From assembly GCA_963789955.1 (NCBI GenBank), contig CAWBMV010000012.1:256001-320000 (forward strand): a stretch of 64,000 bases of DNA, in the 5' to 3' direction. Origin of the DNA: an uncultured Candidatus Rokubacteria bacterium (GTDB lineage: Bacteria; Methylomirabilota; Methylomirabilia; Rokubacteriales; CSP1-6). The notes beneath the pieces were generated by a model. That model was not told where the DNA came from, did no database searches, and saw nothing but the letters and a program-made list of their open reading frames with translations. Below are positions 19,755 through 36,687 of this stretch, in pieces. Both the position numbers and the translations under genes were made by a program. Each line of letters starts with the position of its first letter. The stretch's first letter is position 1.

Positions 19755-21159
19755 ATGATCTTTCAGCAGATCCTCAACGAAGAGTCGGGCTGTCTGTCCT
19801 ATCTGATCGGCTGCGGGGAGGCCGGGAAAGCTGCTGGTGGTCGATCCCGGCCGTGACCGCGTCCCCGAATACCTCCGCCTCGCCGCGAAGAAGGGCCTCA
19901 CGATCAGCCATATCCTCGAGACGCACACACACGCCGACCACATCTCGGGCGGTCGCGATCTGGCCGAGGCGGTGCGGGCGCCGATCCTCGTTCACCGGAC
20001 CGCCGGGGTCGCCTTCGAGCACCAGGAGGTGAGCGACGGCGACGAGCTCCGGATCGGCAGCGTGCGCTTCAAGATCGCCCACACGCCGGGCCACACGCCC
20101 GACTCGATCTGCCTGATGGTGTCGGACCTGTCCCGTGGCGAGGCCCCGTGGTTCGTCCTGACGGGCGACATGCTGTTCGTCGGCTCCGTCGGACGCCCGG
20201 ATCTCGGCGGCGCCCGCGCCGCGGAGGACGCGTGGGAGAGTCTGCAGCGCGTGCTGCTGCCGCTCGACGACAGCGTCGAGGTCTATCCCGCCCACGGCGC
20301 CGGCTCGGCGTGCGGCAAGGCGATGTCGGCCAAGTCGGGCTCGACGATCGGCTTCGAGCGCCGCTTCAACCCGGCGCTCCAGCTTCGCGGCCGCCAGGAG
20401 TTCGTCGACTTCCTCATGAAGGATCTGCCGCCGAAGCCGCCCTCGTTCGAGAAGATCGTCGGCAAGAACAAGGGGTTGATCTCGCTCGCCGCCGCCAAGC
20501 CGCGGCCGTTCACGGCCCGCGAGGCGTGGGACGCGGTGCAGCGGGGCGAGATCGTCGTGGACCTGCGCGATCCCGGCACCTACGGCGAGATGCACGTCGC
20601 CGGCGCCGTGAACGTGTGGATCGAGAGCCCGCAGTTCGCCGAGCGCGTCGCGGGCATGGTGCCGTCCGGTGCGTCCTTGCTGTTGCTGGCGCAGGGGCCG
20701 TCGGACCTCGACCGCGCCGTGCAGGCGCTCTCGCGCGTGGGCATCGACGAGATCAGCGGCTTTCTCCAGTGGGGCATGATCGAGTGGCGCAGCGAGGGCT
20801 TCCCGGTCGAGTCGGTGCCGCAGATCACGGTGTCCGAGCTCGCCGAGTGGCTCGAGCAGGGACGTGACGTGGCCGTGATCGACGTGCGCGAGCACTCCGA
20901 GTGGATCGACGGCCACATCGACGGCGCGATCCACCTGCCGATGCTCGAAGCCGCGGCGCGGCGCGGCGAGGTGCCGGCCGACCGGCCGAAGGCGGTGCTG
21001 TGCGCCGGGGGCCTGCGCTCGAGCACCGCGATCAGCGCGCTGAAACGCCACGGCCTGCAGGGATGGTACAACGTCACGGGCGGCATGACGGCGTGGAAAC
21101 GGTTCGGCTATCCCGTCGTGCGCTCGTCGTCGGACTCGGGCAGCGCTCCTCGCGCGTGA
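19755..21159 (+). CDS. MBL-fold persulfide dioxygenase-like protein fused to two rhodanese domains (frameshift near 19833)
   Basis: GCLSYLIG N-terminus, ETHTHADHISG, HTPGHTP, TGD.LF.G.VGRPDL, PAHGAGS.CG; C-terminal rhodanese LCAGGLRS. Confidence 0.87.
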
Positions 21160-21272
21160 TCGCCGACAGAAGTGCGAGCCGAAGCGGTGCCTCCGCTGAG
21201 GCGAGCCTGTGATCAACGGGCGGTGCAAGCGCTTCAGCAAAGCCGAGCTCGCTCGCTCCGCTGTACGCGGCG

Positions 21273-22406
21273 GTGTTCGGACGCCCGTGGCTGGTGTGGG
21301 GCTCCGCGGTGCTGGTCGCCACCCTCAACGTCTTCCTCTTCGCCTTCGATCGTCCGTGGACCGCCTCGGACGGGCTCCGGAACTGGGGCGACTGGGTGCT
21401 CACCGGCGTCGGTCTCGTCCGCCGCCCCGACCTCTTGCCGCCCTGGCTCTATTCGGGCTCCCTGCTGAACATCGGCGTCATCGTCGGCGGCACGATCGCG
21501 GCGCTCCTGTCGCGCGAGTTCGCGATCCGCGTGCCGGCGCGCGCCGAGCTCGCCAAGGGGGGCGCCGGCGGGCTCCTGATGGGCGTCGGCGCTGTGCTCG
21601 CCTTCGGCTGCAACATCGGCGGATTCTTCTCGGCGACGAGCGCGCTCTCGCTGTCGGGCCTCGGCATGATGCTCGGGCTCGGCGCCGGCGCGTTCATCGG
21701 GATCCGCTATCTGATCTGGGAAGTCGCGCACCGGCCGCAGTGGTCGCGCGGCGGCGGGCGCATCTATCTGCAGGCGGCGGGTCCGGCGACCGCGGGGCAC
21801 ACGTGGGCCGGAGCGGTCGTCGTCGCCCTGGTCGCGGTGGTGCTCGTTCTCTACACGCGGGCGGGCTACGGGCCGCAAGGCGTGTTCTTGCTCTTCGGCG
21901 CCGCGTTCGGTGTGGTGTTCCAGCGATCCCGGTTCTGTCTGGTGCGCGCTTTCCGTGAGCCGTTCATGACGGGCGACGCCGAGCACACCCGGGCGGCGGC
22001 GCTGGCGCTCGTCGTGGCGACGCTCGGCTTCGCGATCTTGAAGTTCACCGATCTCAAGGACAAGAGCGAGTGGGTGTTCCCGGCGGCGGGGTTCGGCTCG
22101 CTGGCCGGCGGGCTGGCTTTCGGCGTCGGGATGACGCTCGCGGGCGGCTGCGGCGCGGGCTCACTGTGGCGCGCGGGCGAGGGACAGGTGAAGCTCTGGG
22201 CGACCGTCGCGTGCTTCGCCGTGGGCGCGTCGCTGGCGCGGCTGATCGCCGTCCAGACCGGGCTTTTGCAGAAGCTCGGCGCCGCGATCTTCCTGCCGGC
22301 CTGGCTCGGCTGGGGCGGGGCGATCGTGTTGATCGTCGCGATCGCGCTCGCGTGGGCTATGCTGTCGACCTGGAACGAGGAAACGCACACATTCAGCGTG
22401 GTCTAG
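21273..22406 (+). CDS. YeeE/YedE (TsuA/SoxT-like) sulfur-compound transporter
   Basis: Polytopic protein with LAFGCNIG, RSRFC and LAGGCGAG Cys motifs; start uncertain. Confidence 0.85.
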   Translation: MFGRPWLVWGSAVLVATLNVFLFAFDRPWTASDGLRNWGDWVLTGVGLVRRPDLLPPWLYSGSLLNIGVIVGGTIAALLSREFAIRVPARAELAKGGAGGLLMGVGAVLAFGCNIGGFFSATSALSLSGLGMMLGLGAGAFIGIRYLIWEVAHRPQWSRGGGRIYLQAAGPATAGHTWAGAVVVALVAVVLVLYTRAGYGPQGVFLLFGAAFGVVFQRSRFCLVRAFREPFMTGDAEHTRAAALALVVATLGFAILKFTDLKDKSEWVFPAAGFGSLAGGLAFGVGMTLAGGCGAGSLWRAGEGQVKLWATVACFAVGASLARLIAVQTGLLQKLGAAIFLPAWLGWGGAIVLIVAIALAWAMLSTWNEETHTFSVV

Positions 22407-22417
22407 CGGAGGGGCGG

Positions 22418-23674
22418 ATGAAGGAGTCGACCCGAAGAGAATTCCTTCGGACGTCATCCTGGGCAGGGCTCGGGCTGTTCGCCGCGGGTTGCGCGCCGAA
22501 AGTGTCGGACTTCGCCCAGAAGACAGGCCGTCGCGTCGTCGTGATCGGCGGCGGATGGGGCGGCATGTCGGCGGCCAAGTACGTGCGCCTGGCCGATCCG
22601 TCGATCGAGGTCGTGTTGCTCGAGCCGAACAAGGAATTCGTGTCGTGCCCGTTCTCGAACCTGGTCCTGAGCGGCGTGCGCACGATCGACAGCCTGACCT
22701 TCGACTACGACGGCCTGCGGGCCCATGGCGTTCGCGTCCTGCACGAGACGGCCACCATGATCGAGCCCGACCGCAAGCGCGTGCAGGTCGGGAGTGACTC
22801 GCTTCCCTACGACCGGCTCATCGTTTCGCCGGGCGTCGAGTTCCAGTGGGAGCAGGTCGAGGGGCTCGCCGGCGCGCAGGACCGCGTGCTCCACGCCTGG
22901 AAGGCCGGCCCGCAGACCGTGGAGCTGGCGCGCCAGCTCCAGGCGATGCCGGATGGCGGCGTGTTCGTGCTGACGATCCCGCCGGCCGCCTATCGCTGCC
23001 CGCCCGGTCCGTACGAGCGGACGTGCCAGGTCGCGTGGTATTTGAAGAACAACAAGCCGAAGTCGAAGCTGATCGTTCTCGACGCCAACCCGAACATCAT
23101 CTCGAAGACCGCGCTGTTCCGCGCCGCCTGGGCCAACTACCCGAACATCGAATACCGCGGCTCGAACAAGGTCGTGAAGGTCGACCCCGGCGCACGCGAG
23201 GTGACGACGGAGCTCGGCGACAAGGTGAAGTACGACGTGCTGAACCTGATCCCGCCGCAGCGAGCGGGGACGATCGCGGTGACGGCGGACCTGGTCGGCG
23301 CCGACAAGCGCTGGTGCGAGGTCAACCATCTGACCTACGAGTCGGTGAAGCACAAGAACGTTCACGTGATCGGCGATTCGACGATCGGGCTGCCGGTACC
23401 GAAGTCGGGCAACGTCGCCAACGCGATGGGGAAGATCTGCGCGGTCGCGGTCGCGAGCCTGCTCAACGACAAGCCGGTGCCCACGATGGCGCCGGGGAAC
23501 ACCTGCTATAGCTGGGTGAGCGACCGGGAGGCGATCGCGGTCGTCAACAGCTACAAGATCGAGGGCGGCAAGGTCGTGCAGATCGAGCAGAAGCTCACGC
23601 CGGGCCAGTCGGAAGCGTGCGCGCAGAACGCGCTGGGGTGGGCCAACAGTATCTGGCAAGACATGCTCGGCTAG
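22418..23674 (+). CDS. fccB: flavocytochrome c sulfide dehydrogenase, flavoprotein subunit (FccB/SoxF-like)
   Basis: Tat motif TRREFL plus lipobox AAGC, GGGWGG, CPFSN, YRCPPGPYER, PKSG, NTCYS. Confidence 0.9.
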   Translation: MKESTRREFLRTSSWAGLGLFAAGCAPKVSDFAQKTGRRVVVIGGGWGGMSAAKYVRLADPSIEVVLLEPNKEFVSCPFSNLVLSGVRTIDSLTFDYDGLRAHGVRVLHETATMIEPDRKRVQVGSDSLPYDRLIVSPGVEFQWEQVEGLAGAQDRVLHAWKAGPQTVELARQLQAMPDGGVFVLTIPPAAYRCPPGPYERTCQVAWYLKNNKPKSKLIVLDANPNIISKTALFRAAWANYPNIEYRGSNKVVKVDPGAREVTTELGDKVKYDVLNLIPPQRAGTIAVTADLVGADKRWCEVNHLTYESVKHKNVHVIGDSTIGLPVPKSGNVANAMGKICAVAVASLLNDKPVPTMAPGNTCYSWVSDREAIAVVNSYKIEGGKVVQIEQKLTPGQSEACAQNALGWANSIWQDMLG

Positions 23675-23675
23675 G

Positions 23676-23802
23676 GCAGGCGAATGATAAAGGCCCATCT
23701 GCTTCGTTGGCGCCCTCGGCCGCACGCTCACCGTACAGAGAGTACGGCTCGCGTGCGGCCTTCGGGCGCCGCCTCGCAGCTGGACCTTTCTCATTCGCCT
23801 GC
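23676..23802. mobile_element. 127-bp fully palindromic MITE-like element
   Basis: Terminal IR GCAGGCGAATGA/TCATTCGCCTGC (12 bp perfect, about 27 bp with 3 mismatches) enclosing nested stems GGCGCCC, GGCCGCACGC and CCGTAC. Confidence 0.65.
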
Positions 23803-23842
23803 ACGGCTGCTCATACGCCTACATGGTGCGAAAGGACATAGG

Positions 23843-24430
23843 ATGCGACTCTTTGTGAGTCTGCTTCTCATGCTGCTGATGTTGGCCGGGCCGGTGTGGG
23901 CGGGGCCGTTGGATATGGCGGGGGCGCCGCAGGCGCTGGTGTGTAGTGCTTGTCATGGCTTTGCGGGGCAGAGTCGATCGAGCACGATGCCGATCCTCGC
24001 GGGCATGGCTCCCTGGTATTTCAAGAAGGCGATCTCGGATTACGCGGCGGGCAAGCGGCCGTCGCCCGAGATGGAACCCTACGCGAAGATGGTGCTGCAG
24101 TCGGGTGTGGATGACATCGCCGCCTACTTCGCAGCTCAGGCGCGGACGCCGTCGCCGGTCAAGCTCGAGCCCGCGGCGATCGAACGCGGGCGGGCCGCCG
24201 CCGCCCAGTGCACGCTCTGCCACGGCGCCTCGGGCAAGGGTGATCCGTCCAAGGGCGTGCCCGACCTCACGGGCCAGTCGCCGGGATATCTGCGCAACCA
24301 GATGCTCCTGTTCAAGGCCGACCGGCGAAGCCCCGGTGACGATCAGCTCAAGGCCGTGAAGGTGCTGATGCGGACCATCCCCGACGAGCAGATCTCCGAC
24401 CTCGCGGCCTACTGGTCGAGCGTCCGCTAA
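23843..24430 (+). CDS. diheme c4-type cytochrome (FccA/SoxE-like partner)
   Basis: Signal peptide, CSACH and CTLCH heme motifs, P.LAG and P.L.GQ; adjacent to fccB. Confidence 0.85.
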   Translation: MRLFVSLLLMLLMLAGPVWAGPLDMAGAPQALVCSACHGFAGQSRSSTMPILAGMAPWYFKKAISDYAAGKRPSPEMEPYAKMVLQSGVDDIAAYFAAQARTPSPVKLEPAAIERGRAAAAQCTLCHGASGKGDPSKGVPDLTGQSPGYLRNQMLLFKADRRSPGDDQLKAVKVLMRTIPDEQISDLAAYWSSVR

Positions 24431-25234
24431 GTGGCGTTCGCCGATGGAGCGATTCTCGTCGCGCTCGGGCTCGCGGTCGGAGCCTTCGGAACGCTCATCG
24501 GCGCCGGCGGCGGATTCATCCTCGTTCCCATCCTGGTCCTCGGCTACCACTTTCCGCCGGCTCAGGCCGTCGGCACGTCGCTGTCGCTCGTCTTTCTCAA
24601 CGCGGCGTCGGGAAGCGTGGCCTATCTTCGTCAGCGGCGGGTCGATCTCTCGCTCGGCTGGAAGTTCGCCGCGTCGACGATCCCCGGGGCCATCATCGGG
24701 GCCTTTCTCACGCGGTCGATCTCCTCGTCGCTGTTCAACCTGCTGTTCGGCATCGTGCTGCTCGCGATCGCGGTGCTGCTCTTCTCCGGCATCACGGCGG
24801 CGCCGTCGAGCCGCGCCGGGGTCCGCCAGGTGGTCGACGCCTCCCGTGAGGCGCACACCTACCGGGTCGACGTCTGGAAGGGCGTGGTCGTCAGCCTGCT
24901 CGTCGGGTTCATGTCGAGCATCCTCGGCATCGGCGGCGGCATCATCCACGTGCCGTTCCTGATCGTCGCGCTGAGCCTGCCGATCCACATCGCCACCGCC
25001 ACCTCCCACTTCGTCCTGAGCATCTCGGCCTTCGTCGGGGCGGTGACGTTCCTGGCGCTCGGCAACGTCGATCTCCGCACCGTCGCGCTCATGGGCGCCG
25101 GTATCCTCGTCGGCGCGCAGCTCGGGGCGCGGGCGTCGCTTCGCGCCGGCGCGACCTTGATCCGGCGGATCCTGGCCGGCTCGCTCGCCGTCGTCGGGCT
25201 CCGGATGATCTTGCAGGGGCTCGGCCGTGCGTAG
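24431..25234 (+). CDS. TauE/SafE family sulfite exporter
   Basis: Duplicated G.GGG..vP motifs (GAGGGFILVP, GIGGGIIHVP), A.GTS and ATATS. Confidence 0.88.
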   Translation: MAFADGAILVALGLAVGAFGTLIGAGGGFILVPILVLGYHFPPAQAVGTSLSLVFLNAASGSVAYLRQRRVDLSLGWKFAASTIPGAIIGAFLTRSISSSLFNLLFGIVLLAIAVLLFSGITAAPSSRAGVRQVVDASREAHTYRVDVWKGVVVSLLVGFMSSILGIGGGIIHVPFLIVALSLPIHIATATSHFVLSISAFVGAVTFLALGNVDLRTVALMGAGILVGAQLGARASLRAGATLIRRILAGSLAVVGLRMILQGLGRA

Positions 25235-25245
25235 GCTCGTCTGAC

Positions 25246-26796
25246 ATGCGCTACGGCTTCGTGATCGATCAGCGCCGATGCATCGGCTGTCACGCGTGCA
25301 CGGTGGCGTGTAAAGAGGAAAATCGTGTCCCGCTCGGCGCGTTCCGCACCTGGGTGAAATACATCGAGCGCGGCAGCTTCCCGAACACGCGCCGCTACTT
25401 CTCCGTGCTCCGCTGCAATCACTGCGACTCGGCACCCTGCGTGACCATCTGTCCGACCGTCGCCCTCTACCGGCGCGACGACGGCATCGTCGATTTCGAC
25501 GGCGCTCGCTGCATCGGCTGCAAGTCGTGCATGCAGGCCTGCCCGTACGACGCGCTCTACATCGACCCGGAGACGCAGACGGCGGCGAAGTGCAACTACT
25601 GCGCGCATCGGGTCGAGGTCGGCCTCGAGCCCGCGTGCGTCATCGTGTGCCCGGAGCAAGCGATCATCGCCGGCGACCTCGACGATCCCGCCTCGCAGAT
25701 CGCCACGATCGTGGCGCGCGAGCCGGTGCAGGTGAGAAAGGCCGAGCAGGGTACGCGGCCCAAGGTGTTCTACCTCGGCGCCGACGCCGCCGCGCTCACC
25801 CCGGAGCTTCAGATCCCGTCGGAGCGCTACCTCTGGGCCCAGCGACCGGCCGAGGAGGTCGACCTGATCAGGATGGTCGCCGCCGCGCAGGAGGCGGATC
25901 ACGCGCGCGGCGGCGCGGCGCTCAGCCGGCCCGTGTACGACGTGCCGCACGCCGTCCGCCCCTGGGGCTGGAAGGTCTCCGCGTATCTGTGGACGAAATC
26001 CGTCTCGGCCGGCGCGCTGCTCGTGGCGGCTTTCGCCGGCTCCGAATCGTGGGGCAGCCTCTTCACCGGCGCCGCGCCGGCGCTGAGTCTCCTCTTCCTG
26101 GCCATCACGACGGCGCTGCTGGTCGCCGACCTCAAGCGGCCCGAGCGCTTCGCCTACATCTTGCTGAAGCCGAACTGGCGCTCGTGGCTCGTGTGGGGCG
26201 CGTGGATCTTGATGGCGTTCGGCATCACCGGCGCCGTGTGGCTCATCGGCGGCGTGACGGGACGGTCGGGCCTGCTCCACCTGGCGCTGATTCCGTCGAT
26301 CCTGCTGGCGCTCGCCACCGCGGGCTACAGCGCGTTCCTGTTCGGACAGGCCGAGGGACGAGATTTCTGGCAGAGCCCGCTCGTGCTGCCGCACCTGATC
26401 ATCGCCGCCGTGGTCGCGGGCGCCGCGACCCTGTCGGTCGCTGCGGCGATGGCGCCGCTTCAGAGCACGGAGGCGGACCCGAGCGCGACCTTGTGGCCGC
26501 TCCTGTTCCTGTCCCTGGTGGCTCACGGTTTTCTCGTCGCGCTCGAGGTGTTCAATCGGCACGCGGTCCACGACGCGACGCTCGCGGCGCGCCTGATCCG
26601 GCGCGGACCGTATCGCGCGCGCTTCTGGGGCGGCGTGGTGCTGGGCGGCGTGGTCGCGCCGATGGCGCTGATGATCGCCGGCGCGGCATCGGACTCGACC
26701 ACCGTGAGCACCCTCGGCGCGCTGCTCGCGCTGGCCGGTCTCTGGGTGTGGGAGGACTTGTGGGTGAGGGCCGGGCAGTCGGTTCCGCTGAGCTGA
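25246..26796 (+). CDS. fused 4x[4Fe-4S] (NrfC/PsrB-like) and NrfD/PsrC-like membrane anchor
   Basis: CIGCHACTVAC, CNHC...CVTICP, CIGCKSCMQACP, KCNYC...C..CP, followed by WG..V..Y, DL.RP.RF and SWL.WG TM domain. Confidence 0.9.
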   Translation: MRYGFVIDQRRCIGCHACTVACKEENRVPLGAFRTWVKYIERGSFPNTRRYFSVLRCNHCDSAPCVTICPTVALYRRDDGIVDFDGARCIGCKSCMQACPYDALYIDPETQTAAKCNYCAHRVEVGLEPACVIVCPEQAIIAGDLDDPASQIATIVAREPVQVRKAEQGTRPKVFYLGADAAALTPELQIPSERYLWAQRPAEEVDLIRMVAAAQEADHARGGAALSRPVYDVPHAVRPWGWKVSAYLWTKSVSAGALLVAAFAGSESWGSLFTGAAPALSLLFLAITTALLVADLKRPERFAYILLKPNWRSWLVWGAWILMAFGITGAVWLIGGVTGRSGLLHLALIPSILLALATAGYSAFLFGQAEGRDFWQSPLVLPHLIIAAVVAGAATLSVAAAMAPLQSTEADPSATLWPLLFLSLVAHGFLVALEVFNRHAVHDATLAARLIRRGPYRARFWGGVVLGGVVAPMALMIAGAASDSTTVSTLGALLALAGLWVWEDLWVRAGQSVPLS

Positions 26797-26824
26797 GACC
26801 GTTCGCTATGACGATAGGACGACC

Positions 26825-29653
26825 ATGACAGATCGCGCGGCCATACCGCTCCATCCCGTGGCCCGGGAGATCGCCGAATCCCAGGGCGGCCTCAAGAGCT
26901 ACCCGCCCGTCGAGCGCTGGGACAACTGGGAAGAGTACGATCCGGTCGCGTGGCCGCAGAAGGTCAAGCGCCGCTACTCGCTGATCCCGACGATCTGCTT
27001 CAACTGCGAGGCGGGCTGCGGCCTGCTCGCCTACGTCGATCGCGAGACGCTCGCGATCCAGAAGTTCGAAGGCAACCCCGCCCACCCCGGGAGCCGCGGG
27101 CGCAACTGCGCCAAAGGCCCCGCGACGCTCAACCAGGTGACCGACCCGGAGCGGATCCGCTATCCGCTGCGCCGGGTCGGCCCCCGCGGGGGCGGGCGGT
27201 GGGAGCGGGTCACGTGGGACGAAGTGCTCGACGACATCGGCGGGCGCATTCGCAAGGCCCTGGTCGAGGGCCGGCAGCGCGAAATCATGTACCACCTGGG
27301 CCGGCCGGGACACGAGCTCGTCTATCTCCAGCGCGTCTTCCACGCCTGGGGCATCGACGGCCACAACAGCCATACGAACGTCTGTTCGGCGAGCGCGCGA
27401 GCGGGCTACGCCTTCTGGCACGGCATGGACCGCCCGTCGCCCGACCACGCCAACGCGCGCTTCATCCTGCTCCTGTCCTCGCACCTGGAGACCGGCCACT
27501 ACTTCAACCCGCACGCCCAGCGAATCATGGAAGCCAAGTCGCGCGGCGCCAAGATCGCCGTGTTCGACACGCGGCTCAGTAACACCGCGTCGATGGCCGA
27601 CTGGTGGGTGGCGCCGTGGCCGGGGTCGGAGTCCGCCGTGCTCCTGGCGATGGCGCATATCCTCGTGCGCGAGAAGCTCTACGACCGCGAGTTCGTCCGC
27701 CGCTGGGTGAACTGGGACGAGTACCTGCGCGAGGAGCGCCCCGATCTGCCGGTCACGTTCGACTCGTTCGAGCGCGCGATCGACGAGCTCTACGCGCACT
27801 TCACCCCGGAGTACGCCGAAGCCGAGAGCAGCGTCCCGGCCGCGACGATCGTCGAGATCGCGCGCGAGATCGGCCGCGCCGGCTCGGCGCTGGCGACCCA
27901 CATCTGGCGCAATACCGCCGCCGGCAACCTCGGCGGCTGGCAGGTCGCGCGCGCGCTCGAGCTGATCGTGGTGCTCATGGGCGCGGTCGGCACGCCCGGC
28001 GGCACCGCGCCCAGCGCCTGGAACAAGGCGGTGCCGGCGCCGCCGATGATGCCGCCGCCGGGCAAGATCTGGAGTGAGCTCCTGATGCCGCGCGAGTACC
28101 CGCTCGCGTTCTTCGAGATGAGCTTCCTGCTCCCGCATTTCCTGCGCGAAGGCCGCGGCAAGCTCGCGATGTACTTCACGCGCGTCTACAACCCGGTGTG
28201 GACGAATCCCGATGGGATGTCGTGGATCGAGGCGCTCACCGACGAGACGAAAGTGGAGCGCCACGCGTGCCTGACGCCGATCTGGAGCGAGACGGCGTGG
28301 TTCGCGGACTACGTGTTGCCGATGGGGCACGCCTCGGAGCGCCACGACCTCATGTCGCAGGAGACGCACGCCGCGCGGTGGATCGGCTTCCGCCAGCCCG
28401 TGCTGCGCGTCGCGCTCGAGCGAGCGGGCAAGCGCTTCGATCTCACCTGGCAGGCGCACGAGGCGGCCGGCATCGGACAGGTCTGGGAGGAGGACGAGTT
28501 CTGGATCGAGCTCTCCTGGCGGATCGACCCCGACGGCTCGCTCGGCATCCGGAAGTACTTCGAGTCGCCGTATCGGCCGGGCGAGAAGCTCCGCATCGAG
28601 GAGCAGTACCGGTGGATGTTCGAGAACAGCGTGCCCGGGCTTCCGGCCGCGGCCGCGAAGGAGCAGCTGACGCCGCTCGAGTACATGCGCAAGTACGGCG
28701 CGTTCCTGATCGAGGACGGCGTGTACCGCACGCACGAGCAGGCGCCCGGCGCGAAAGACCTGGACGGCGCGACCGTCGATCCCGTCACGAGTGTCATCAA
28801 CAAGGGCGGACAGCCGGTCGGCGTCGAGATCGACGGCCGGCGGCACATCGGCTTTCCCACGCCCTCACGCAAGCTCGAGTTCTTCTCGAACACCTTGAAG
28901 TCGTGGAAGTGGCCGGACCAGGCGGTGCCGAACTACATCCGGAGCCACGTCCACTGGTCGAACCTCGATCGCGCCAAGGGCGAGATGGTGCTGCTGCCGA
29001 CGTTCAGGCTCCCGACCTTGATCCACACGCGCTCGGGCAACGCGAAGTGGCTCTACGAGATCTCCCACTCGAATCCGCTCTGGCTCCATCCCGAGGACGC
29101 CACGCGGCTCGGCGTGGCGACCGGCGATCTCCTGAAGATCGCGACGCGGATCGGCCACTTCGTCGACCGGGTGTGGGTGACCGAGTCGGTGCGTCCCGGC
29201 GTGGTGGCGTGCTCACATCACCTCGGGCGGTGGCGTCTGCACGAGGACGCGGGCGGTGAGCGGTGGTCGACGTCGCTCGTCGATCTGAGCCGGCTCGACG
29301 CCGGCAAGTGGCGGATGCGTCAGCTCCACGGTCCGCGACCGTTTCCGAGCGACGATCCGGATTCGTCGCGGGTCTGGTGGAACGAGGCCGGCGTCCACCA
29401 GAACCTGACGTTCCCGGTCCAGCCCGATCCGGTCAGCGGCCAGCACTGCTGGCATCAGAAGGTGACCGTGATGCGGCCGGGCCCCGACGACCGTTACGGC
29501 GACGTCTTCGTCGACACGGACAAGTCGTTCGAGGTCTACCGCGAGTGGCTGGCGCTGGCCCGTCCGGCGCCCGGTCCCGACAATCTGCGGCGCCCGCTGT
29601 GGCTCCCGCGGGCGTTCAAGCCCGACGCGTCCGCCTACAAGATCGGGCCCTGA
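26825..29653 (+). CDS. molybdopterin (DMSO reductase family) oxidoreductase catalytic subunit, no Tat signal
   Basis: CFNCEAGC...NCAKG FS0 cluster, R..YPL.R.G.RG.G.W...WDE, HNSHTNVC, ETA..AD..LP, C-terminal molydopterin dinucleotide-binding domain. Confidence 0.9.
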   Translation: MTDRAAIPLHPVAREIAESQGGLKSYPPVERWDNWEEYDPVAWPQKVKRRYSLIPTICFNCEAGCGLLAYVDRETLAIQKFEGNPAHPGSRGRNCAKGPATLNQVTDPERIRYPLRRVGPRGGGRWERVTWDEVLDDIGGRIRKALVEGRQREIMYHLGRPGHELVYLQRVFHAWGIDGHNSHTNVCSASARAGYAFWHGMDRPSPDHANARFILLLSSHLETGHYFNPHAQRIMEAKSRGAKIAVFDTRLSNTASMADWWVAPWPGSESAVLLAMAHILVREKLYDREFVRRWVNWDEYLREERPDLPVTFDSFERAIDELYAHFTPEYAEAESSVPAATIVEIAREIGRAGSALATHIWRNTAAGNLGGWQVARALELIVVLMGAVGTPGGTAPSAWNKAVPAPPMMPPPGKIWSELLMPREYPLAFFEMSFLLPHFLREGRGKLAMYFTRVYNPVWTNPDGMSWIEALTDETKVERHACLTPIWSETAWFADYVLPMGHASERHDLMSQETHAARWIGFRQPVLRVALERAGKRFDLTWQAHEAAGIGQVWEEDEFWIELSWRIDPDGSLGIRKYFESPYRPGEKLRIEEQYRWMFENSVPGLPAAAAKEQLTPLEYMRKYGAFLIEDGVYRTHEQAPGAKDLDGATVDPVTSVINKGGQPVGVEIDGRRHIGFPTPSRKLEFFSNTLKSWKWPDQAVPNYIRSHVHWSNLDRAKGEMVLLPTFRLPTLIHTRSGNAKWLYEISHSNPLWLHPEDATRLGVATGDLLKIATRIGHFVDRVWVTESVRPGVVACSHHLGRWRLHEDAGGERWSTSLVDLSRLDAGKWRMRQLHGPRPFPSDDPDSSRVWWNEAGVHQNLTFPVQPDPVSGQHCWHQKVTVMRPGPDDRYGDVFVDTDKSFEVYREWLALARPAPGPDNLRRPLWLPRAFKPDASAYKIGP

Positions 29654-29717
29654 GGCGCGAATCGACTGTTGGGCTGGACGCATCCTGGATAATGCGAGAT
29701 TGGCAGGAGGGCGAACG

Positions 29718-30215
29718 ATGATGGACGGTTCCCGGATACCCCGGCGCCAGGCGTTGAAGACGCTCGGGGCGCTCGGCGTCGGCGCTGCCGCGAGCGGTCT
29801 CGCGCCGGTGAAGACCGCGCACGCGCAGGCCCCGACGCTCGGCCAGAACGAGAGCGTGCAGGACGCGATGAAGCGGCTCTTTGGCGGCAAGACCATCAAG
29901 GACGGCTCCGCCATCATCAAGTTCGACATCCCGCTCATCGCCGAGAACGGCAGCGTGGTGCCGGTGGCGGTCAGTGTCGACTCGCCGATGACCGCGTCGA
30001 GCTACGTGAAGCACATCTACGTCGTGGCCGACAAGAACCGTATTCCCGTCGTCACGCGGGTGACCCTGGCGCCGGAGGCGGGCAAGGCCTCGGTGGGCGC
30101 GAACATCCGGCTCGGCGAGACCGGTGAGGTGCGCGCGATCGTGGAGCAGAGCGACGGCACCCTGCTGCAGGTCGCGCGCGAAGTGAAAGTCACCGTCGGC
30201 GGCTGCGGAGGCTGA
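29718..30215 (+). CDS. soxY: sulfur carrier SoxY
   Basis: Tat-like RRQALK, P.IAENG..VP, C-terminal VKVTVGGCGG. Confidence 0.95.
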   Translation: MMDGSRIPRRQALKTLGALGVGAAASGLAPVKTAHAQAPTLGQNESVQDAMKRLFGGKTIKDGSAIIKFDIPLIAENGSVVPVAVSVDSPMTASSYVKHIYVVADKNRIPVVTRVTLAPEAGKASVGANIRLGETGEVRAIVEQSDGTLLQVAREVKVTVGGCGG

Positions 30216-30218
30216 GCG

Positions 30219-30552
30219 ATGTCAGACATCGGGAAGGTCCGGCTCCGCATTCCCTCGACGCATCAAGCCCGGTGACGTCGTTCAGGTGCGTTCGCTCGTG
30301 ATCCATCCGATGGAGCGCATCGAGCGCGACGCGCAGGGCAAGATCCTCCAGAAGAACTACAACTACATCAACAAGGTCACGGTGACCTACCTCGGGAAGA
30401 CCGTCGCGGTCTTCGATACGACCCAGAGCGTGGCCGAGAATCCGTTCTTCTCGTTCACGTTCAAGGCGACCGATCCGGGCCAGCTCAAGGTCGAGTTCCT
30501 CGACACGACGGGCGGCCGGTACGAAGGCACCGCCGACATCAAGTTCTCGTGA
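30219..30552 (+). CDS. soxZ: SoxZ (frameshift near 30260)
   Basis: VRSLVIHPME, SVAENPFFSF.F; directly after soxY. Confidence 0.9.
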
Positions 30553-30563
30553 TCGTCGCTGTC

Positions 30564-31877
30564 ATGACCGGCGCGACGGCGCGCCGGGCGCTGCGCTGGG
30601 CGGCGTTCGCGATGCTGAGCGCCGGCTGCGCTGGCACCAGCCCTCGACGTGCCCGACTACAACGCCGTCCCGAAGTGGACGTCGCGCGCGTTGCCCGAGG
30701 CGCGCGGCGAGTTCCGTACCGGGCCCGACGGCAAGCGGGTGGCGGTTCGCTACCCCGGATGGACGACGCGCGACTTCGATCGCTATCCGACCTACGCCTA
30801 CGGCGACGAGCGCATCGAGCCCTCGGTGCAGCGCGTGACGATGCCGGCGGGCGTCACCGGCGACGCCCAGAAGGGGCGCGCGCTCTTTCTGAGCCGGAGC
30901 AAGGGGCCGTGTATCGGCTGCCACCTGGTGCCGGGTGACGACGTCTGGCCCGCCGGAAGCGCCGGTCCCGACCAGTCCACGCTCGCCGATCGGAAGCTTC
31001 CGGATCAGTACCTGTATCAGGTGATCTGGGATGCTCGCGCGTACTTCCCGAACACGATCATGCCGCCGTGGGGAGCCACAGGGGTCTTGAGCTCCGAGGA
31101 GATCGTGCACGTCGTCGCCTATCTGCAGACGCTCAAGGGGCCGGCGGCGCCCGAGAAGGACCGGGAACGGAATCCGTTCACGCGTTCGAAGCCGGTGGGG
31201 TTCGGCGACAACCTCGATCCGACGAACAACCCGGCGGTGGTGCTGGCCGACGACGGCGAGGCGCTGTGGACCGCGCGCGGCCCCTCGGGCAAGGCGTGCG
31301 CCGACTGCCACGAGAGTGGCGCGGCGCGCGCGATGCGCGGCGTGGCGACGCAGTATCCAAAGTTCGTGAAGCCGTACGGGCGCGTGATGAGCCTCGAGGA
31401 TTTTCTCGAGGTGCACGCCCCGGAGACGACCGGCCGGGCGATGGCGAGCCAGTCGGCCGACAACCTCGACATGACGATGTTCGTCAAGCGCGCGTCGAAC
31501 GGGCTGCCGGTGAAGCGTCGACGTCGCGAGCCCCGAGGCGCGGGCGGCGCTCGCGCGGGGCAAGGCGACCTTCTATCGCAAGGTGGGCGAGCGGAACCAC
31601 TCGTGTGCCGACTGTCATACGACCGAGGCCGCGGCGGGGAAGTTCCTCGGCGGCCGCGTGCTCGCCGACGTCCGAGCCGGGATTGACCCGACATTTTCCG
31701 ACCTGGCGGACCGATCGCGCCGAGGTCTGGGACATGCGCAAGCGCTTCCAGTGGTGCATGACGCCACTCGGGATGAACATGCTCGCCGCCGATTCCATCG
31801 AGTACGCCGAGCTCGAGCTCTACCTGACCTCCTTCGACAACGGCAAGCCGCTCAACGTGCCCGGGATCCGCCACTAG
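30564..31877 (+). CDS. soxA: fused SoxX-SoxA triheme cytochrome lipoprotein (frameshifts near 30640, 31515, 31680)
   Basis: Lipobox SAGC; SoxX part G..LF...KGPCIGCH..TIMPPWG; SoxA part NPA...GE.LW..CADCH, second CADCH, FP.WR, RKRFQWC, LELYL. Confidence 0.82.
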
Positions 31878-31880
31878 CGC

Positions 31881-33583
31881 ATGGACGTCTCGCGGCGCGA
31901 TCTGGTCAAGCTGCTCGCGGTCGCGGCGGGCGCTGGGCTCGCACCGCGCCGTCTCGAAGCCGCCGACGGCCCGGACCGGCTCCTCGCGTTCGAGCCGCTC
32001 GGCAACGTGACACTGCTGCACATCACCGACGCCCACGCGACGCTCCGGCCGGTGTTCTATCGCGAGCCCGACTCGGTCATCGGCGTCGGCGCCGAACGCG
32101 GCCATCCGCCGTTTCTGACCGGCGCCGAGCTGCTTCGCGCGTATCACCTCTCGCCGGGGACCGTCGAGGCGTATGCCTACACGTATCTCGATTTCCCGGC
32201 GCTGGCCGCGCGATACGGGCGGATGGGGGGCTACGCGCATCTCGCCACCCTGGTCAAGCGGATCCGCGAGCAGCGCGAGGGGCGCACGCTCTTGCTCGAC
32301 GGTGGCGACACGATCCAGGGCTCGGCGACCGCACTCTGGACCCGCGGCGAGGACATGGTGCGGGTCTCGAACCAGCTCGGGGTCGACGTCTTCACGCCCC
32401 ACTGGGAGTTCGTGTACGGCATCGATCGCGTGAAGGAGCTCTTCGGCGATCGCGAGAACAAAGGGCTCTTCGCCGGCGACTTCGTCGCCCACAACGTCAC
32501 CGAGCTCAACTGGGCCGAGCGCCCGTTTCGGCCGTACACGATCCGGGAAGTGGGCGGTGCCCGCGTGGGCGTCATCGGCCAGGCGTTTCCGTACACGCCG
32601 GTCTCCCATCCCCGGCGCTTCGTGCCCGATCTCACGTTCGGTATCAGGGAAGACGGCATCCAGGCGCTGGTGACACGAGCTGCGGGACGGCAAGAAGGTC
32701 GACCTGGTCGTCCTGCTCTCGCACAACGGTGTCGCCGTCGACTTGAAGCTCGCCGGGCGCGTGCACGGGCTCGACGTCGTGCTCGGCGGTCACACCCACG
32801 ATGCGCTGCCGCAGCCGATCCGTGTGGGCCGCACGCTCGTCGTGAACTCCGGCTCGCACGGCAAGTTCCTGAGCCGCCTGGACATGGACGTCCAGCGCGG
32901 ACGCGTCGGCTCCTACCGGTATCGCCTGATCCCGGTCCTGGCCCAGGACGTCCCGGCGGATCCCGAGATGGCGCAGCTGATCGAGGAGATTCGCCGGCCG
33001 TACGAGGACAAGTTGAGCGAGCGGCTGGCGGTGTCCGACACCTTGCTCTACCGGCGCGGCAACTTCAACGGCACGTTCGACGAGCTGATCCTCGACGCGC
33101 TCTTGCGCGGCGCCGACGCGCAGATCGGCTTTTCACCGGGCTTCCGGTGGGGGATCACGATCGTCCCGGGCCAGGAGATCACGCTCGAAGACGTCTACGC
33201 GCACACCGCCGTGACCTACCCGAACACCTGGGTGCGCGAGATGACGGGGAGCGAGATCCACCAGGTGATGGAGGACGTCGCCGACAATCTGTTCCATCCC
33301 GATCCGTACTATCGGCAGGGCGGCGATATGGTCCGGCTGGGCGGGCTGACCTATACGATCGACCCGGCGAAGGGGATGGGCCGGCGCATACGAGACCTCC
33401 GCGTGGCAGGCCGGGCCCTGGAGCCGACGCGCCGCTACAAGTCGACGGGGTGGGCGAGCCTCACCGAGGCCGACGGCCCCCCGGCGTGGGACGTCGTGGC
33501 CGCGCACCTGCGAAGCCTCGGACGAGTCAAGATCGCGCCACGGGCGCGCGTCAAGGTCGTGGGACGCAAAGGAGAATGGATGA
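31881..33583 (+). CDS. soxB: thiosulfohydrolase SoxB (frameshift near 32672; stop position ambiguous)
   Basis: Tat SRRDLVK, GNVTLLHITD.H..L.P...REP, LDGGDT.QGS, HWEF, GQAFPY, LSHNG, GGHTHD, YRRGNFNG, SPGFRWG, DPYYRQGGDMVR. Confidence 0.93.
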
Positions 33584-34125
33584 GCCGTAGCCTCGCGCTC
33601 GCGGTGGCCCTGGTCGGGCTCGCGCTGCTGCCGGCCGACGCGGCCGACGATCCGCTCGACGAGCGGCTCTCGGCGTTCCAGGTCACACCGCTCGGCGACC
33701 AGGGCCCGCTGCCGTTCAAGCTCGAGTCGCTCGACGGCAAGCTCGTCTCGCTCGCCGACGTGCGCGGCCGGGTCGCCATGCTCTATTTCTGGGAAAGCAC
33801 CTGACCATACTGCGCGAGGGAGTTGCCCTCGACGATCGAGCGAATCCATCGGGAGCTCAAGGACGAGGGGTTGGTCGTGCTGGCGATCAACCTCGCCGAG
33901 AAGCGCGAGCTCGTCGCGACGTGGGTGAAGAGTCGCAACGTGACGTCGACGGTGCTGCTCGACGCGAGCAAAGAGGTCGAGAAGAGCTACCAGATCGCCT
34001 ACACGCCGACGGTGTTCCTGGTCGATCGCCGCGGCAAGCTGGTCGGCAAGGCGATCGGCGAGCGCGCATGGGCCGGCGAGCAGGGACGGGCGCTGCTGCG
34101 CCTGCTGCTCGCGCGCAAGGGCTAG
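33580..34125 (+). CDS. exported TlpA/ResA-like thioredoxin with in-frame UGA (probable selenocysteine, UPYC)
   Basis: AAAGGAG RBS, signal peptide, F.L..LDG..VSL.D.RG....LYFWEST-TGA(33802-33804)-PYCARELP, continuing in frame to V.AIN...PT.FLVDR.G, stop TAG 34125. Confidence 0.88.
33815..33831 (+). promoter_or_regulatory. putative bacterial SECIS hairpin
   Basis: CGAGGG-AGTTG-CCCTCG; stem starts 10 nt and loop 16 nt after the UGA, with GU in the loop. Confidence 0.72.
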
Positions 34126-34172
34126 CAGGCTGGCGTCCGCCTCGCATCTGAACTTTTTTCAGCAGCCTGCTA
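34122..34172. terminator. CTAG-bounded inverted repeat between convergent genes (MITE remnant / bidirectional terminator)
   Basis: CTAGCAGGCTG ... CAGCCTGCTAG; the TAG stops of both flanking genes lie in its ends. Confidence 0.55.
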
Positions 34173-35091
34173 GCGCCGGCGGCGCGGCGGCCCGTCGGCT
34201 TCGCTGAGCGCCGAACGCAGCGCCTGGAGCAGGGCGCGCGCGGCCGGCGAGAGCGGACGGGGACGCGGGTGGATCACGTCGAGGCTTCGGGCGATCGGCT
34301 CGGCGTCGACGATCTCGAACGCGACCAGGCTGCGCCGGCGTAGCTCGCGTCCGACCGCCAGGTGCGGCAGGAAGGCGAGCCCCATGCCGCGCTCGACCAT
34401 GCGTTTCGCCGTCTCGATCGTCTCGACCTCGAGCGCCACGTTCGGCACGAGCCCCGCCCGCCGGAACAATCCCTGGGTCAAGGTCCAGTCGCTCGAGCCG
34501 CGGTCGAAGAAGATCAGCGGCCGATCGGCGATCTCTTCGAGCCGCGCCCGGCGCTCGCGCTTCGGCCAGGACGCCGCCCGCCCGACCAGCACGAGCGGAT
34601 CGTCGCGCAGGCTCACGGTCTCGACTTCGGGGTGGTGGAGCGACCGCGCGAGGCCGATCTCGGCGTCGCCGCGCAGCACCATCTCGAGCACCTCCTTGGA
34701 GTGGCCGGAGCGGACGGTGATCATCACGTTGGGATGCGCGCTCTGGAATCGCTTGAGGACGTCGGGCAGGAGATAGGTGCAGATCGACAGCACCGCGGCG
34801 ATCTGGATCGCGCCGCCGCTCGCCGGACGGATGTCGTGCACCGCCTGACGCGCGAGCGCCACCGCCTGCAGCAGCTGTTCGGCGTGCGGGCGTAGCGCGC
34901 GGCCCGCCGCCGAGAGCGCGAGCCCGTGACCCTGTCCGGCCACGCTCGAAGAGCCGCACCTTGAGCGAATCCTCCAGGGTGCGGATGCGCGCGCTCACCG
35001 CCGGCTGCGTCAGACGGAGCGCCGCCGCGGCGCGACGAAAGCCGCCGAACGTCCCGACCGCGAGAAACGCTTCGACCTGAGGGATATCCAC
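34170..35091 (-). CDS. LysR-type transcriptional regulator (frameshift near 34935)
   Basis: F..AA..L.LTQPAVS.RI..LE..L...LFER HTH in ORF 34159..35091; effector domain in ORF 34170..34943. Confidence 0.92.
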
Positions 35092-35119
35092 GCGTGAGCC
35101 TTCCGGAATCTACCTGGTG

Positions 35120-35134
35120 ATAAAGATAATTTAT
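35120..35134. promoter_or_regulatory. LysR-type operator (ATAA-N7-TTAT, T-N11-A) in an AT-rich divergent promoter
   Basis: ATAAAGATAATTTAT between lysR and the microprotein-aceA unit. Confidence 0.65.
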
Positions 35135-35236
35135 ATGGGATATAAAAACAATCACGTTGTTGATTTGTGATCCTCCCGCGCTCACTCTGGAAATCACCGA
35201 GAGAGATCACGCGACGCGAAGGCGGAGGAGACGGCG

Positions 35237-35401
35237 ATGTCGACGACGTGCGAGTGCGGAGCGACGCTCGAGCAGCCGGGCCGGACGGCGCGCTGCCAGG
35301 AATGTGACGTGGCGGCCTGCCCCGGCTGCGTCATCCATGTGGAGACCATGACCTATTGCCGGTGGTGCGCGACCGTGCTCGCGCGCCATCGTGTCGCCTG
35401 A
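35237..35401 (+). CDS. 54-aa, 8-Cys putative zinc-binding microprotein
   Basis: GGAGGAG RBS; MSTTCECGATLEQPGRTARCQECDVAACPGCVIHVETMTYCRWCATVLARHRVA*; below the ORF-track size cutoff. Confidence 0.75.
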   Translation: MSTTCECGATLEQPGRTARCQECDVAACPGCVIHVETMTYCRWCATVLARHRVA

Positions 35402-35411
35402 GGAGGGATCG

Positions 35412-36386
35412 ATGCCGGAGAGCAAAGGACGACAGTTCCGACGCCTGCTGAAGGAAGAGCCGTATCTGTTCACGGGCGGCATCTACGAGCCGCTCGGCGC
35501 GCAGATGGCCGAGAAGGTCGGCATGAAGTCGATCTACCTGAGCGGCTACTCGATGGCCCTGCACAACGCATGGCCGGACATGGGCTTTCTCACGCAGACG
35601 GAGGTCGCCCGGATCGCGTCGATGGTGGCCTCGGCCACGAGCCTGCCGGTCATCGCCGACGCCGACGACGGCTACGGCAACGCGCTCTCGACGATCCGAA
35701 CGGTGCAGGAGTTCATGAAGACGGGCGTCGCCGGCATCCATCTGGAGGACCAGCGGTTCCCGAAGCGCTGCGGCCACATCGCCGGGAAGACCATCGTGAG
35801 CCTCGAGGAGGCCCTGGGCAAGTACCGGGCCGCGCTCGACACGCGCGACCGCCTCGATCCGGACTTCGTGATCATCGCCCGGACGGATGCCTACGGGGCG
35901 GTGGGCGGCAGCCTCGAGGAAGCGATCCGCCGCGGCCGCGCCTATGCCGACGCCGGCGTCGATTCCGTGTGGTGCGAGCTCTCGAACGCCTCGCGTGAGC
36001 CCGCGGTGGCCTTCGCCAAGGCGATGCGCGAGACCCATCCGGATCTGCCGCTGTCGTTCAACTACTCGTCGTCGTTCCGCTGGCACCAGGACCCGAACCC
36101 GTTCACGTTCAAGGAGCTGGGCGAGCTCGGCTACAAGTTCATCTTCATCACGCTCTTCGCCTCCCACGCGGCGACGTACGCCACCTGGAACGCGATGGAG
36201 GAGCTGGTGCGTGACGAGGAGCAGGCCCAGTGGATGCTCGAGAAGGCGAAGGTCGGCCATCCGACGGAGAGCCACCACGTGATGGCGCGGGTCTCCTATT
36301 TCCAGGAGCTCGAGAAGAAGTACATCCCGGGCACCGAGGACCGGATCAAGTCCTCAGCGGGCTTCGACGACCACCGGATGCATTGA
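35412..36386 (+). CDS. aceA: short-form isocitrate lyase (ICL/PEP-mutase family)
   Basis: YLSG, ADADDGYG, HLEDQ..PKRCGH, ARTDA, FNYSSSFRW, LGELGYKFIFITL (ICL-type rather than PrpB-type C-terminal half). Confidence 0.75.
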   Translation: MPESKGRQFRRLLKEEPYLFTGGIYEPLGAQMAEKVGMKSIYLSGYSMALHNAWPDMGFLTQTEVARIASMVASATSLPVIADADDGYGNALSTIRTVQEFMKTGVAGIHLEDQRFPKRCGHIAGKTIVSLEEALGKYRAALDTRDRLDPDFVIIARTDAYGAVGGSLEEAIRRGRAYADAGVDSVWCELSNASREPAVAFAKAMRETHPDLPLSFNYSSSFRWHQDPNPFTFKELGELGYKFIFITLFASHAATYATWNAMEELVRDEEQAQWMLEKAKVGHPTESHHVMARVSYFQELEKKYIPGTEDRIKSSAGFDDHRMH

Positions 36387-36687
36387 GTCAACATTGGGGA
36401 GGAGCGTCGCCGCTCCGCTCGCACCCATAGTGTCCCCAGGTTGCCGGTAGCCTTCGAGGGGCGAGCGAGCCCGGTAGCTTGCTCTTCGGGAGTTTAGAGC
36501 GCCCCGGTGCAGTCCCGGCCGGGGCGCGGTACATTATAAGAATAAGAGTCGTGGGTGTGGCGGCATGGTGCCGCCATAGGTCAGTTCTTCGAGTGGTCGG
36601 GCCGCCACTCGTGAAACTGGGGACGGGTCAAACCGTCTCACTCCCTCACCAGCCTATCTGAGTGCGGGAGTCCTATGGGAGAGCGCC

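Follow-up and report, generated by a model that had tools for sequence, protein, structure and literature searches.

A gene at positions 33580 to 34125 of a 64,000-nucleotide stretch of DNA from an uncultured Candidatus Rokubacteria bacterium (GenBank assembly GCA_963789955.1, contig CAWBMV010000012.1, positions 256,001 to 320,000; hereafter the window) would encode a 181-aa redoxin of the TlpA/ResA type, with an in-frame UGA, read as selenocysteine (Sec), in place of the first active-site cysteine. Rokubacteria belong to Methylomirabilota. Features lie on the forward strand unless stated otherwise. Translation agrees with a preliminary description of this DNA, made from its letters alone, which had seen a split gene continuing in frame past the TGA to position 34125: the frame holds a single internal stop, TGA at 33802–33804 (codon 75), and closes with TAG at 34123–34125. 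The surrounding residues read ...LYFWEST-UGA-PYCARELP..., giving the active site U-P-Y-C, with Sec75 at the nucleophilic position and Cys78 (33811–33813) as the predicted resolving cysteine; the protein has no other Cys or Sec. Residue 75 (U or C), Cys78, Glu81 and Pro143 of the T-P-T motif (34006–34008), the last of which we take to be the cis-Pro position of the thioredoxin fold, are invariant in the 29 sequences of alignment A1. A Shine-Dalgarno-like AGGAG (33570–33574) stands 5 nt ahead of the ATG. Export of the protein, which had also been proposed, is supported by a predicted Sec/SPI signal peptide (33580–33642), judged by eye and by hydropathy: a basic N-region is followed by a hydrophobic core (Kyte-Doolittle peak of 2.95 over residues 7–17) and by A-D-A at residues 19–21, with no lipobox cysteine. 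By the same judgement, a hydrophobic N-terminus with an A-x-A motif is present in most orthologs as well.

Two Pfam domains span the UGA in the read-through protein, AhpC-TSA (PF00578, E 5e-22, residues 41–155) and Redoxin (PF08534, E 3e-20, residues 40–161), and the best PDB relatives by sequence are ResA proteins (E 1e-19). An AlphaFold2 model, whose input alignment included the locus L033 from an unpublished genome, reached a pLDDT of 92.8, and its top Foldseek matches are again ResA (E 3e-15, TM-score to target 0.88–0.91, rmsd ~2 Å, 26–28% identity). The predicted structure has a thioredoxin fold with the N-terminal beta-hairpin and the helix-strand insert typical of TlpA. Sequence, Pfam and model thus concur with the earlier view that the fold is of the thioredoxin/TlpA kind and that U takes the nucleophilic position, and the redoxin is a member of the ResA/TlpA family. 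With Bacillus subtilis ResA and Bradyrhizobium TlpA it shares the Glu three residues after the CxxC and the T-P motif; it differs in having Sec where they have Cys and in a signal peptide that is predicted to be cleavable, unlike their membrane anchor. It also scores below the curated family cutoffs (ResA NF002854, 80.5 of 170 bits; TlpA, 43.8 of 230 bits).

We searched 61 related genomes and compared the best-matching locus in 30 of them, the source genome included. Codon 75 is TGA at 27 loci and TGT or TGC at three, and no other codon occurs there; one of the TGA loci (L033) comes from the unpublished genome G025, without which the count is 26/29. The same TGA therefore recurs in 26 further genomes, even where protein identity falls to 39%, and the reading frame is intact on both sides of it in all of them. 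The compared orthologs span 39–91% identity and come from related organisms, so the loci are not independent of each other. That the UGA sits at the first position of a thioredoxin CxxC is borne out by U-P-Y-C and by cysteine being the alternative in orthologs. Two other decodings were considered and rejected: read-through as tryptophan (codes 4/25), given that the alternative residue is always Cys and that orthologs end in TGA stops, and a UxxU motif, the second TGA in some matches being a natural stop.

The element expected to direct Sec insertion is a hairpin at 33815–33831, a putative bacterial selenocysteine insertion sequence (bSECIS) overlying codons A79-R80-E81-L82-P83-S84. It consists of a 6-bp stem (33815–33820 and 33826–33831) closed by the loop AGTTG (33821–33825), starts 10 nt 3' of the UGA and carries GU in its loop, located exactly as had been reported. 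The bSECIS model, as given in the consulted part of PMC13188914, calls for a loop of 3–9 nt with G then G/U at loop position 1–2, a spacing of 16–37 nt and a minimum free energy (MFE) of at most −7.5; with a UGA-to-loop distance of 16 nt, the loop AGUUG, six base pairs and an MFE of −12.4 kcal/mol, the hairpin satisfies these constraints. An Rfam scan of 29000–36500 returned one chance match (E 0.25, 18 of 153 bits) and no match to a SECIS model. In a genome of 68% GC the hairpin by itself proves nothing, because its folding energy is no better than that of shuffled sequences (z −0.11 to −1.28 in four windows), and its significance comes from comparative and synonymous-codon tests instead. Two of the codons that form it are rare in six genes of the window, where AGG accounts for 2.2% of the codons for Arg and TTG for 4.8% of those for Leu. 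Among 20,000 synonymous recodings only 0.12% formed six Watson-Crick pairs at the hairpin register, and none combined six pairs with an AGU loop. The hairpin is kept at 27/27 UGA loci (all six stem pairs in 26, five in one), each with AGG for Arg80 and TTG or TTA for Leu82, whereas all three Cys loci have CGG/CGC and CTG/ATG at these codons, which breaks the stem and removes the loop GU. This co-variation with UGA versus Cys, together with the rarity of the codons, backs the earlier suggestion of selection on RNA structure. A paralog on contig C34 (locus L037) has an unchanged loop and a different but compensated stem.

The source genome is 87% complete, so that absences reported for it mean 'not found'. 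The search for selA, selB, selC and selD that had been called for detected all four: SelA (592 bits), SelB (359 bits) and SelD (304 bits) score over their cutoffs, selA, selB and tRNA-Sec are clustered on contig C1, and selD, which in this assembly contains a UGA of its own plus a frameshift, lies on contig C6. Among the 61 genomes selA was detected in 55, including all three with Cys orthologs. From these sequence comparisons, UGA75 is almost certainly read as Sec, by way of the hairpin whose loop lies 16 nt downstream and the SelA, SelB, SelD and tRNA-Sec of the genome.

The competing explanation, that UGA is a true stop created by a nonsense mutation or an assembly error and that the gene is a pseudogene, draws on the quality of this metagenome-assembled genome (MAG), with at least six single-base insertions in a 9-kb region, on the unexceptional stability of the hairpin and on the sequencing runs that are publicly available, the best of which shares only 0.43 of words with the window, so that none showed the source strain's own reads. 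The recurrence of TGA across genomes with Cys as its sole alternative, the perfect co-variation of the hairpin codons and the intact flanking frames leave this explanation extremely improbable. In contigs assembled from the public runs, 33802–33804 is absent among the 40 of 390 substitution rows listed, which by itself does not prove identity at these positions, and one public DNA contig spans 33584–33851 with two differing letters.

Among the relatives, the Cys form L011 nests within the UGA clade, which suggests that Sec reverted to Cys there and that the hairpin then decayed. The tree behind this statement was built quickly; its deep forks are open, and L034 was entered truncated and mislabelled as Cys. 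Ten near-full-length top database homologs (P0002–P0011) carry CxxC, and in a sub-branch formed by L013, P0002–P0006 and P0009 the position following the first active-site residue holds R and not P (U-R-Y-C or C-R-Y-C). This R type accounts for most of the Cys-form orthologs in the database, suggesting repeated Sec-to-Cys reversion in the genus. The expectation that gene callers would miss the gene has proved right: 60 of the 79 database matches are proteins of 99–104 aa that cover 48–55% of the query, and Rokubacteria annotations are thus systematically split at the redoxin UGA. One half-length protein, P0012, is a C-terminal piece that starts at the TTG within the hairpin loop. The named database homologs are assigned to Candidatus Rokuibacteriota.

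The redoxin is not a solitary case. A genome-wide scan of the source genome found 79 TGA codons with coding-like flanks and a SECIS-like hairpin, and a UxxC or CxxU motif is present at 26 of these, as compared to 3/61 for TAG and 1/9 for TAA. Judged from these motifs, the redoxin is one of roughly two dozen or more predicted redox selenoproteins, with ~25 others in the genome. Sites of this large hidden selenoproteome include C3:53486, C6:147642, C22:153213, C34:764112, C12:381563 and C14:64497. Its candidate families, named from motifs by eye, comprise no fewer than eight genes of the UGSC type, several CxxU genes resembling AhpD, a peroxiredoxin-like and a DsbA-like gene, two UH sites of formate-dehydrogenase type, a MoeB-like site and SelD. 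In its available part, a 2026 review mentions 63 predicted selenoprotein genes for one Methylomirabilota MAG.

Upstream of the redoxin gene lie soxY (29700–30215; TIGR04488, 140 bits against a cutoff of 125), which encodes a C-terminal GGCGG arm, soxZ (30219–30552), a fused soxXA (30564–31877) and soxB (31881–33579), the last recognised from profile matches and relatives. Relatives have SoxX and SoxA joined in one 436-aa frame, and in several genomes a second, divergently transcribed soxXA copy, 58–61% identical, is situated just upstream of soxY. In the assembly soxZ is frameshifted near 30259, soxXA near 30640, 31516 and 31682, and soxB, which also lacks its stop codon here, near 32674. Compared with the close relative L047, in which soxZ is intact and soxXA is a 436-aa open reading frame (ORF) with SoxA-TsdA domains, these are single-base insertions (at 30259, 30640, 31516, 31682 and 32674, with a sixth at 34935 in lysR), and contigs of the public runs have one base fewer at about the first five of the six sites. 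Automatic annotation would call this sox operon broken, while relatives and public contigs show intact frames.

The redoxin gene does close the Sox operon, as had been stated, and it does so consistently: at 14/14 genus loci it follows soxB, either directly or with an exported DsrE-like gene in between. Across the 30 loci soxB is found on the same contig within ~3 kb in 20, and the soxB-linked redoxins form a clade in the quick tree (SH-aLRT 99); the other ten comprise six in family f1, located at other parts of the cluster or at a contig edge, and four in family f4. In many relatives the redoxin frame begins inside the 3' end of the DsrE-like gene, which encodes a single cysteine. In the window and at L008, L009, L011, L012, L013, L017, L018 and L020 dsrE is deleted, and the redoxin gene is still next to soxB.

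Because the 3' frame of soxB is open into the redoxin gene up to the UGA (ORF 32743–33804), the window strain could in principle make the redoxin as a C-terminal fusion to SoxB. This is quite improbable. The soxB gene ends in its own stop in every relative read at the junction, two public runs have 443 other letters between the two genes, and the redoxin gene keeps a full signal peptide and its own ribosome-binding site in an assembly that is prone to insertions. Among 8000 scored candidates the only longer homolog with a SoxB-redoxin join is the window's own ORF (P0081, one contig), which is weak evidence. Most likely, judging from the sequences compared, the soxB stop is missing because of an assembly error, beside which dsrE is deleted in reality or in appearance. 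A contig from an RNA library spans the soxB 3' end, the 443-letter insert and the UGA; being a contig, it cannot show a transcript.

Further upstream, a sulfur cluster recognised from domain matches (19837–29653) runs from an MBL-rhodanese fusion through a YeeE/YedE transporter (21213–22406; 11 kb upstream of the redoxin gene), an FccB-like flavoprotein, a cytochrome c and TauE to an NrfC-NrfD fusion (25246–26796) and a molybdopterin enzyme without an evident Tat signal (26825–29653). The last two (25246–29653), conserved upstream of the sox genes and 81–97% identical across relatives, resemble what we take to be a cytoplasm-facing SoeABC-type sulfite dehydrogenase. SoxCD was not found in the source genome (SoxC reaches 130 of 420 bits), dsrA stays under its cutoff and tblastn detected no SoxS or SoxW homologs. 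Its sole CcdA/DsbD-type gene, 39% identical to Paracoccus SoxV, is on contig C6, outside the sulfur cluster.

With this setting in mind, the redoxin had been put forward as a SoxS/SoxW analogue. Kinship with SoxS/SoxW did not hold up: the hidden Markov model of the redoxin family gives E 0.11 against SoxS and 0.06 against SoxW, as opposed to 8e-23 against the TlpA beside the Allomeiothermus sox cluster. The protein belongs to the ResA/TlpA family, and we reject membership in SoxS or SoxW. The references were Paracoccus ferrooxidans proteins identified by gene position, which their record names thioredoxins; pairwise blastp gives 27% identity over 93 aa (E 0.002), and no SoxS entry occurs among the 44 PDB sequence matches or 27 fold matches shown. 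Like the redoxin, whose export is predicted, SoxS and SoxW of Paracoccus, which are fed by SoxV, are exported thioredoxin-fold CxxC proteins encoded with sox genes; they belong to another thioredoxin subfamily, and Paracoccus soxS is accompanied by soxR/soxT and soxV (CcdA), whereas the redoxin cluster has no soxV and SoxCD was not found.

Cysteine-containing TlpA genes are known from other sox clusters. Allomeiothermus silvanus MESIL_RS17385, beside a sox cluster, encodes W-C-T-V-C; it falls on a long branch of the quick tree, and its orthology to the redoxin is not established. In Cupriavidus pinatubonensis, compared by description only, the TlpA-family gene Reut_A3250 shares a sox cluster with the DsrE gene Reut_A3253, and a Cupriavidus sox cluster with a DsrE and a TlpA gene is drawn in the part of PMC13122954 available to us. 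In the literature searched we found no functional study of either TlpA. UxxC redoxin, cd02966 and PF00578 selenoprotein families are already catalogued (PMC13188914, Table 1 of the portion consulted). The redoxin has in common with them the Pfam domains, the UxxC position and a SECIS within the coding sequence; it scores below the NCBIfam seleno-redoxin cutoffs (WAxxUGC_long, 43 of 300 bits; redoxin_TUGYCR, 32 of 100) and differs in being located in a sox operon, neither 'sox' nor 'periplasm' being mentioned in the accessible portion of the 2026 review.

We propose that the protein, a member of the TlpA/ResA family, is an exported Sec-containing thiol-disulfide reductase working for the Sox system with SoxYZ as its target, a statement to which, taken as a whole, we assign a probability of about 0.5. 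After cleavage of the predicted signal peptide, a soluble domain of ~160 aa would reside in the periplasm, with Sec75 as the attacking nucleophile and Cys78 as the resolving residue, and would be re-reduced by the single CcdA/DsbD-type membrane protein. It would attack disulfides or sulfane sulfur at the SoxY GGCGG cysteine and so reactivate the carrier, taking the role of SoxS in Alphaproteobacteria, no SoxS homolog having been found in this genome. As SoxCD was not found, the sulfane sulfur might be released as HS⁻ or polysulfide and imported via YeeE and passed on to the MBL-rhodanese and molybdoenzyme whose genes lie upstream. Against persulfides, a selenolate is the better nucleophile. 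SoxY is inferred to be the substrate from where the gene lies and by analogy. SoxYZ is favoured because SoxS has that role and neither SoxS/SoxW nor SoxC or DsrA was found over cutoff, and because a periplasmic thioredoxin unloading SoxYZ into YeeE has been proposed elsewhere: SoxS reduces false mixed disulfides on SoxYZ (PMC10451225, in the part seen), and in Hyphomicrobium a periplasmic thioredoxin is proposed to free SoxYZ sulfane sulfur for a YeeE-like transporter (PMC11582611, likewise in part). A complex prediction for SoxY, SoxZ and the Cys ortholog of G006 gave no answer (score 0.00) and is evidence neither way.

Several observations weigh against this proposal. No CcdA/SoxV gene lies within the sulfur cluster. 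Two genomes, G017 (89% complete) and the unpublished G025 (95%), keep the UxxC gene directly after the molybdoenzyme and soxB was not found in them; G026, conversely, has soxYZXAB-dsrE with no redoxin match in ~9.5 kb downstream. Eight genomes of family f4, relatives at the level of the order, carry UxxC relatives of 43–51% identity beside non-sox genes, and soxB was matched in only 2 of the 21 genomes of that family. Furthermore, the redoxin is nearer to ResA, whose substrates are apo-cytochromes, than to SoxS.

This last point opens the way to reading the same selenoprotein as a dedicated factor of the ResA type that matures or repairs the cluster's c-type cytochromes, reducing CXXCH disulfides of apo-SoxXA or keeping the active-site Cys of SoxA reduced. 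ResA is the best match in both sequence and structure, the ResA-type Glu81 is invariant and aligns to that of ResA, and the operon encodes a multi-haem SoxXA fusion, with a second SoxXA in several relatives. The Glu does not discriminate, however, since two distant, generic TlpAs (P0079 and P0080) share it invariantly; the genome already has a CcmG-like Cys redoxin beside ccm-type cytochrome c assembly genes (contig C12) and a Cys TlpA neighbouring ccdA; and the redoxin appears to be soluble rather than membrane-anchored. We regard this role as unlikely, if worth keeping in view. Much the same standing goes to a general periplasmic persulfide or polysulfide reductase of the sulfur cluster, partnering the DsrE-like protein, FccAB or YeeE/TauE and not specific for SoxY. 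It would account for the gene staying by the molybdoenzyme in G017 and G025, for the frame starting within the DsrE-like gene in many relatives and for the occurrence of the subfamily without any sox genes in family f4. Yet both sox-less cases of the former kind are incomplete MAGs that may reflect recent losses, and where dsrE has been lost, in the window and several relatives, the redoxin gene adjoins soxB; on balance this alternative, too, seems to us doubtful.

If the redoxin indeed services SoxYZ, how far does selenium enter into thiosulfate oxidation? The link between the two that the preliminary description had drawn is weakened by the ~25 other UGA redox genes, by the relatives that lack sox genes and by the Cys versions. 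To judge from the distribution across genomes, Sec would be an inherited lineage trait of the redoxin subfamily and not a Sox-specific invention, and, read most simply, the sequences suggest that the subfamily contained Sec before it joined the sulfur cluster of family f1, an order of events that rests on the quick tree with its open deep forks. Because Cys versions occupy the same slot, as in the sox operon of G006, the Sox pathway is probably not selenium-dependent across the lineage. A bolder version, to which we give little credence, is that in Rokubacteria lacking SoxCD the selenolate strips the sulfane sulfur of SoxY for the YeeE importer and makes thiosulfate oxidation selenium-dependent. 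Were it true, thiosulfate oxidation in an abundant soil lineage would hinge on selenium supply, Cys reversions would mark selenium-poor niches, and many relatives would need two non-standard decodings, a putative ACG start inside dsrE (see below) and UGA as Sec.

Methylomirabilota are recognised sox carriers (PMC13500833, consulted in part). Redoxins with UxxC have been described, and so, separately, have Cys-TlpA genes in sox clusters; their combination was not found in the literature searched. In that literature, mostly non-subscription papers, no sox operon was reported to include a selenoprotein, nor was one reported from Rokubacteria. In the sections available, an uncharacterised soxO ahead of soxB is described for Pusillimonas (10.1101/708438), coverage of soxSVW is limited to expression (PMC5748708), and BSepDB is stated to hold 57,630 entries, among which the redoxin gene may already be listed. 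From the sequence evidence, then, the selenoprotein is real and its enzyme class known; its role is predicted, and its Sox context is one that we did not find in print. The surprise is limited by the ordinary enzyme class and by the routine use of selenium in the lineage. If the proposed role is right, the Sox pathway would gain a selenoprotein. How SoxY is unloaded and reactivated without SoxCD and SoxS is a matter on which the Hyphomicrobium papers, in the parts consulted, only propose a periplasmic thioredoxin, and the redoxin is a conserved candidate. Since Sec and Cys versions of it occur naturally side by side, both the substrate and the benefit of selenium are testable in vitro.

At eight loci (L008, L010, L011, L014, L015, L016, L019 and L029) neither ATG nor GTG precedes the signal peptide, although L011 does have an upstream TTG. 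In these orthologs an ACG is in frame 76–78 codons before the UGA, 6–7 nt after a 5–6-nt Shine-Dalgarno match within the last dsrE-like codons; L055 has the same frame. Two orthologs from the database, P0004 and P0005, have their initial Met where the ACG would fall, and L008 and L011, which have lost dsrE, retain a 40-nt stub with the ACG. Where dsrE is intact the ACG is also forced by the Gly-Tyr codons of DsrE. An ACG start codon is probable for these orthologs, on evidence that is no more than suggestive.

In family f4, the two Cys relatives (L062:9580–10949 and L063:9750–11089) directly follow a gene with an FGE-sulfatase domain in a methanopterin/furan-type cluster (4-HFC-P synthase), a gene order that would represent a different recruitment of the redoxin subfamily. 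Downstream of the redoxin gene in the window, a convergent LysR regulator gene (34159–35091, reverse strand; frameshifted near 34935) is the conserved neighbour in the genus. Between the two, a 52-nt element with 11-bp inverted ends and a T-run (34122–34173) overlaps the redoxin stop codon. It occurs once in the genome, is missing both in L047 and in the contigs of three public runs, and is possibly terminator-like or the scar of a mobile element.

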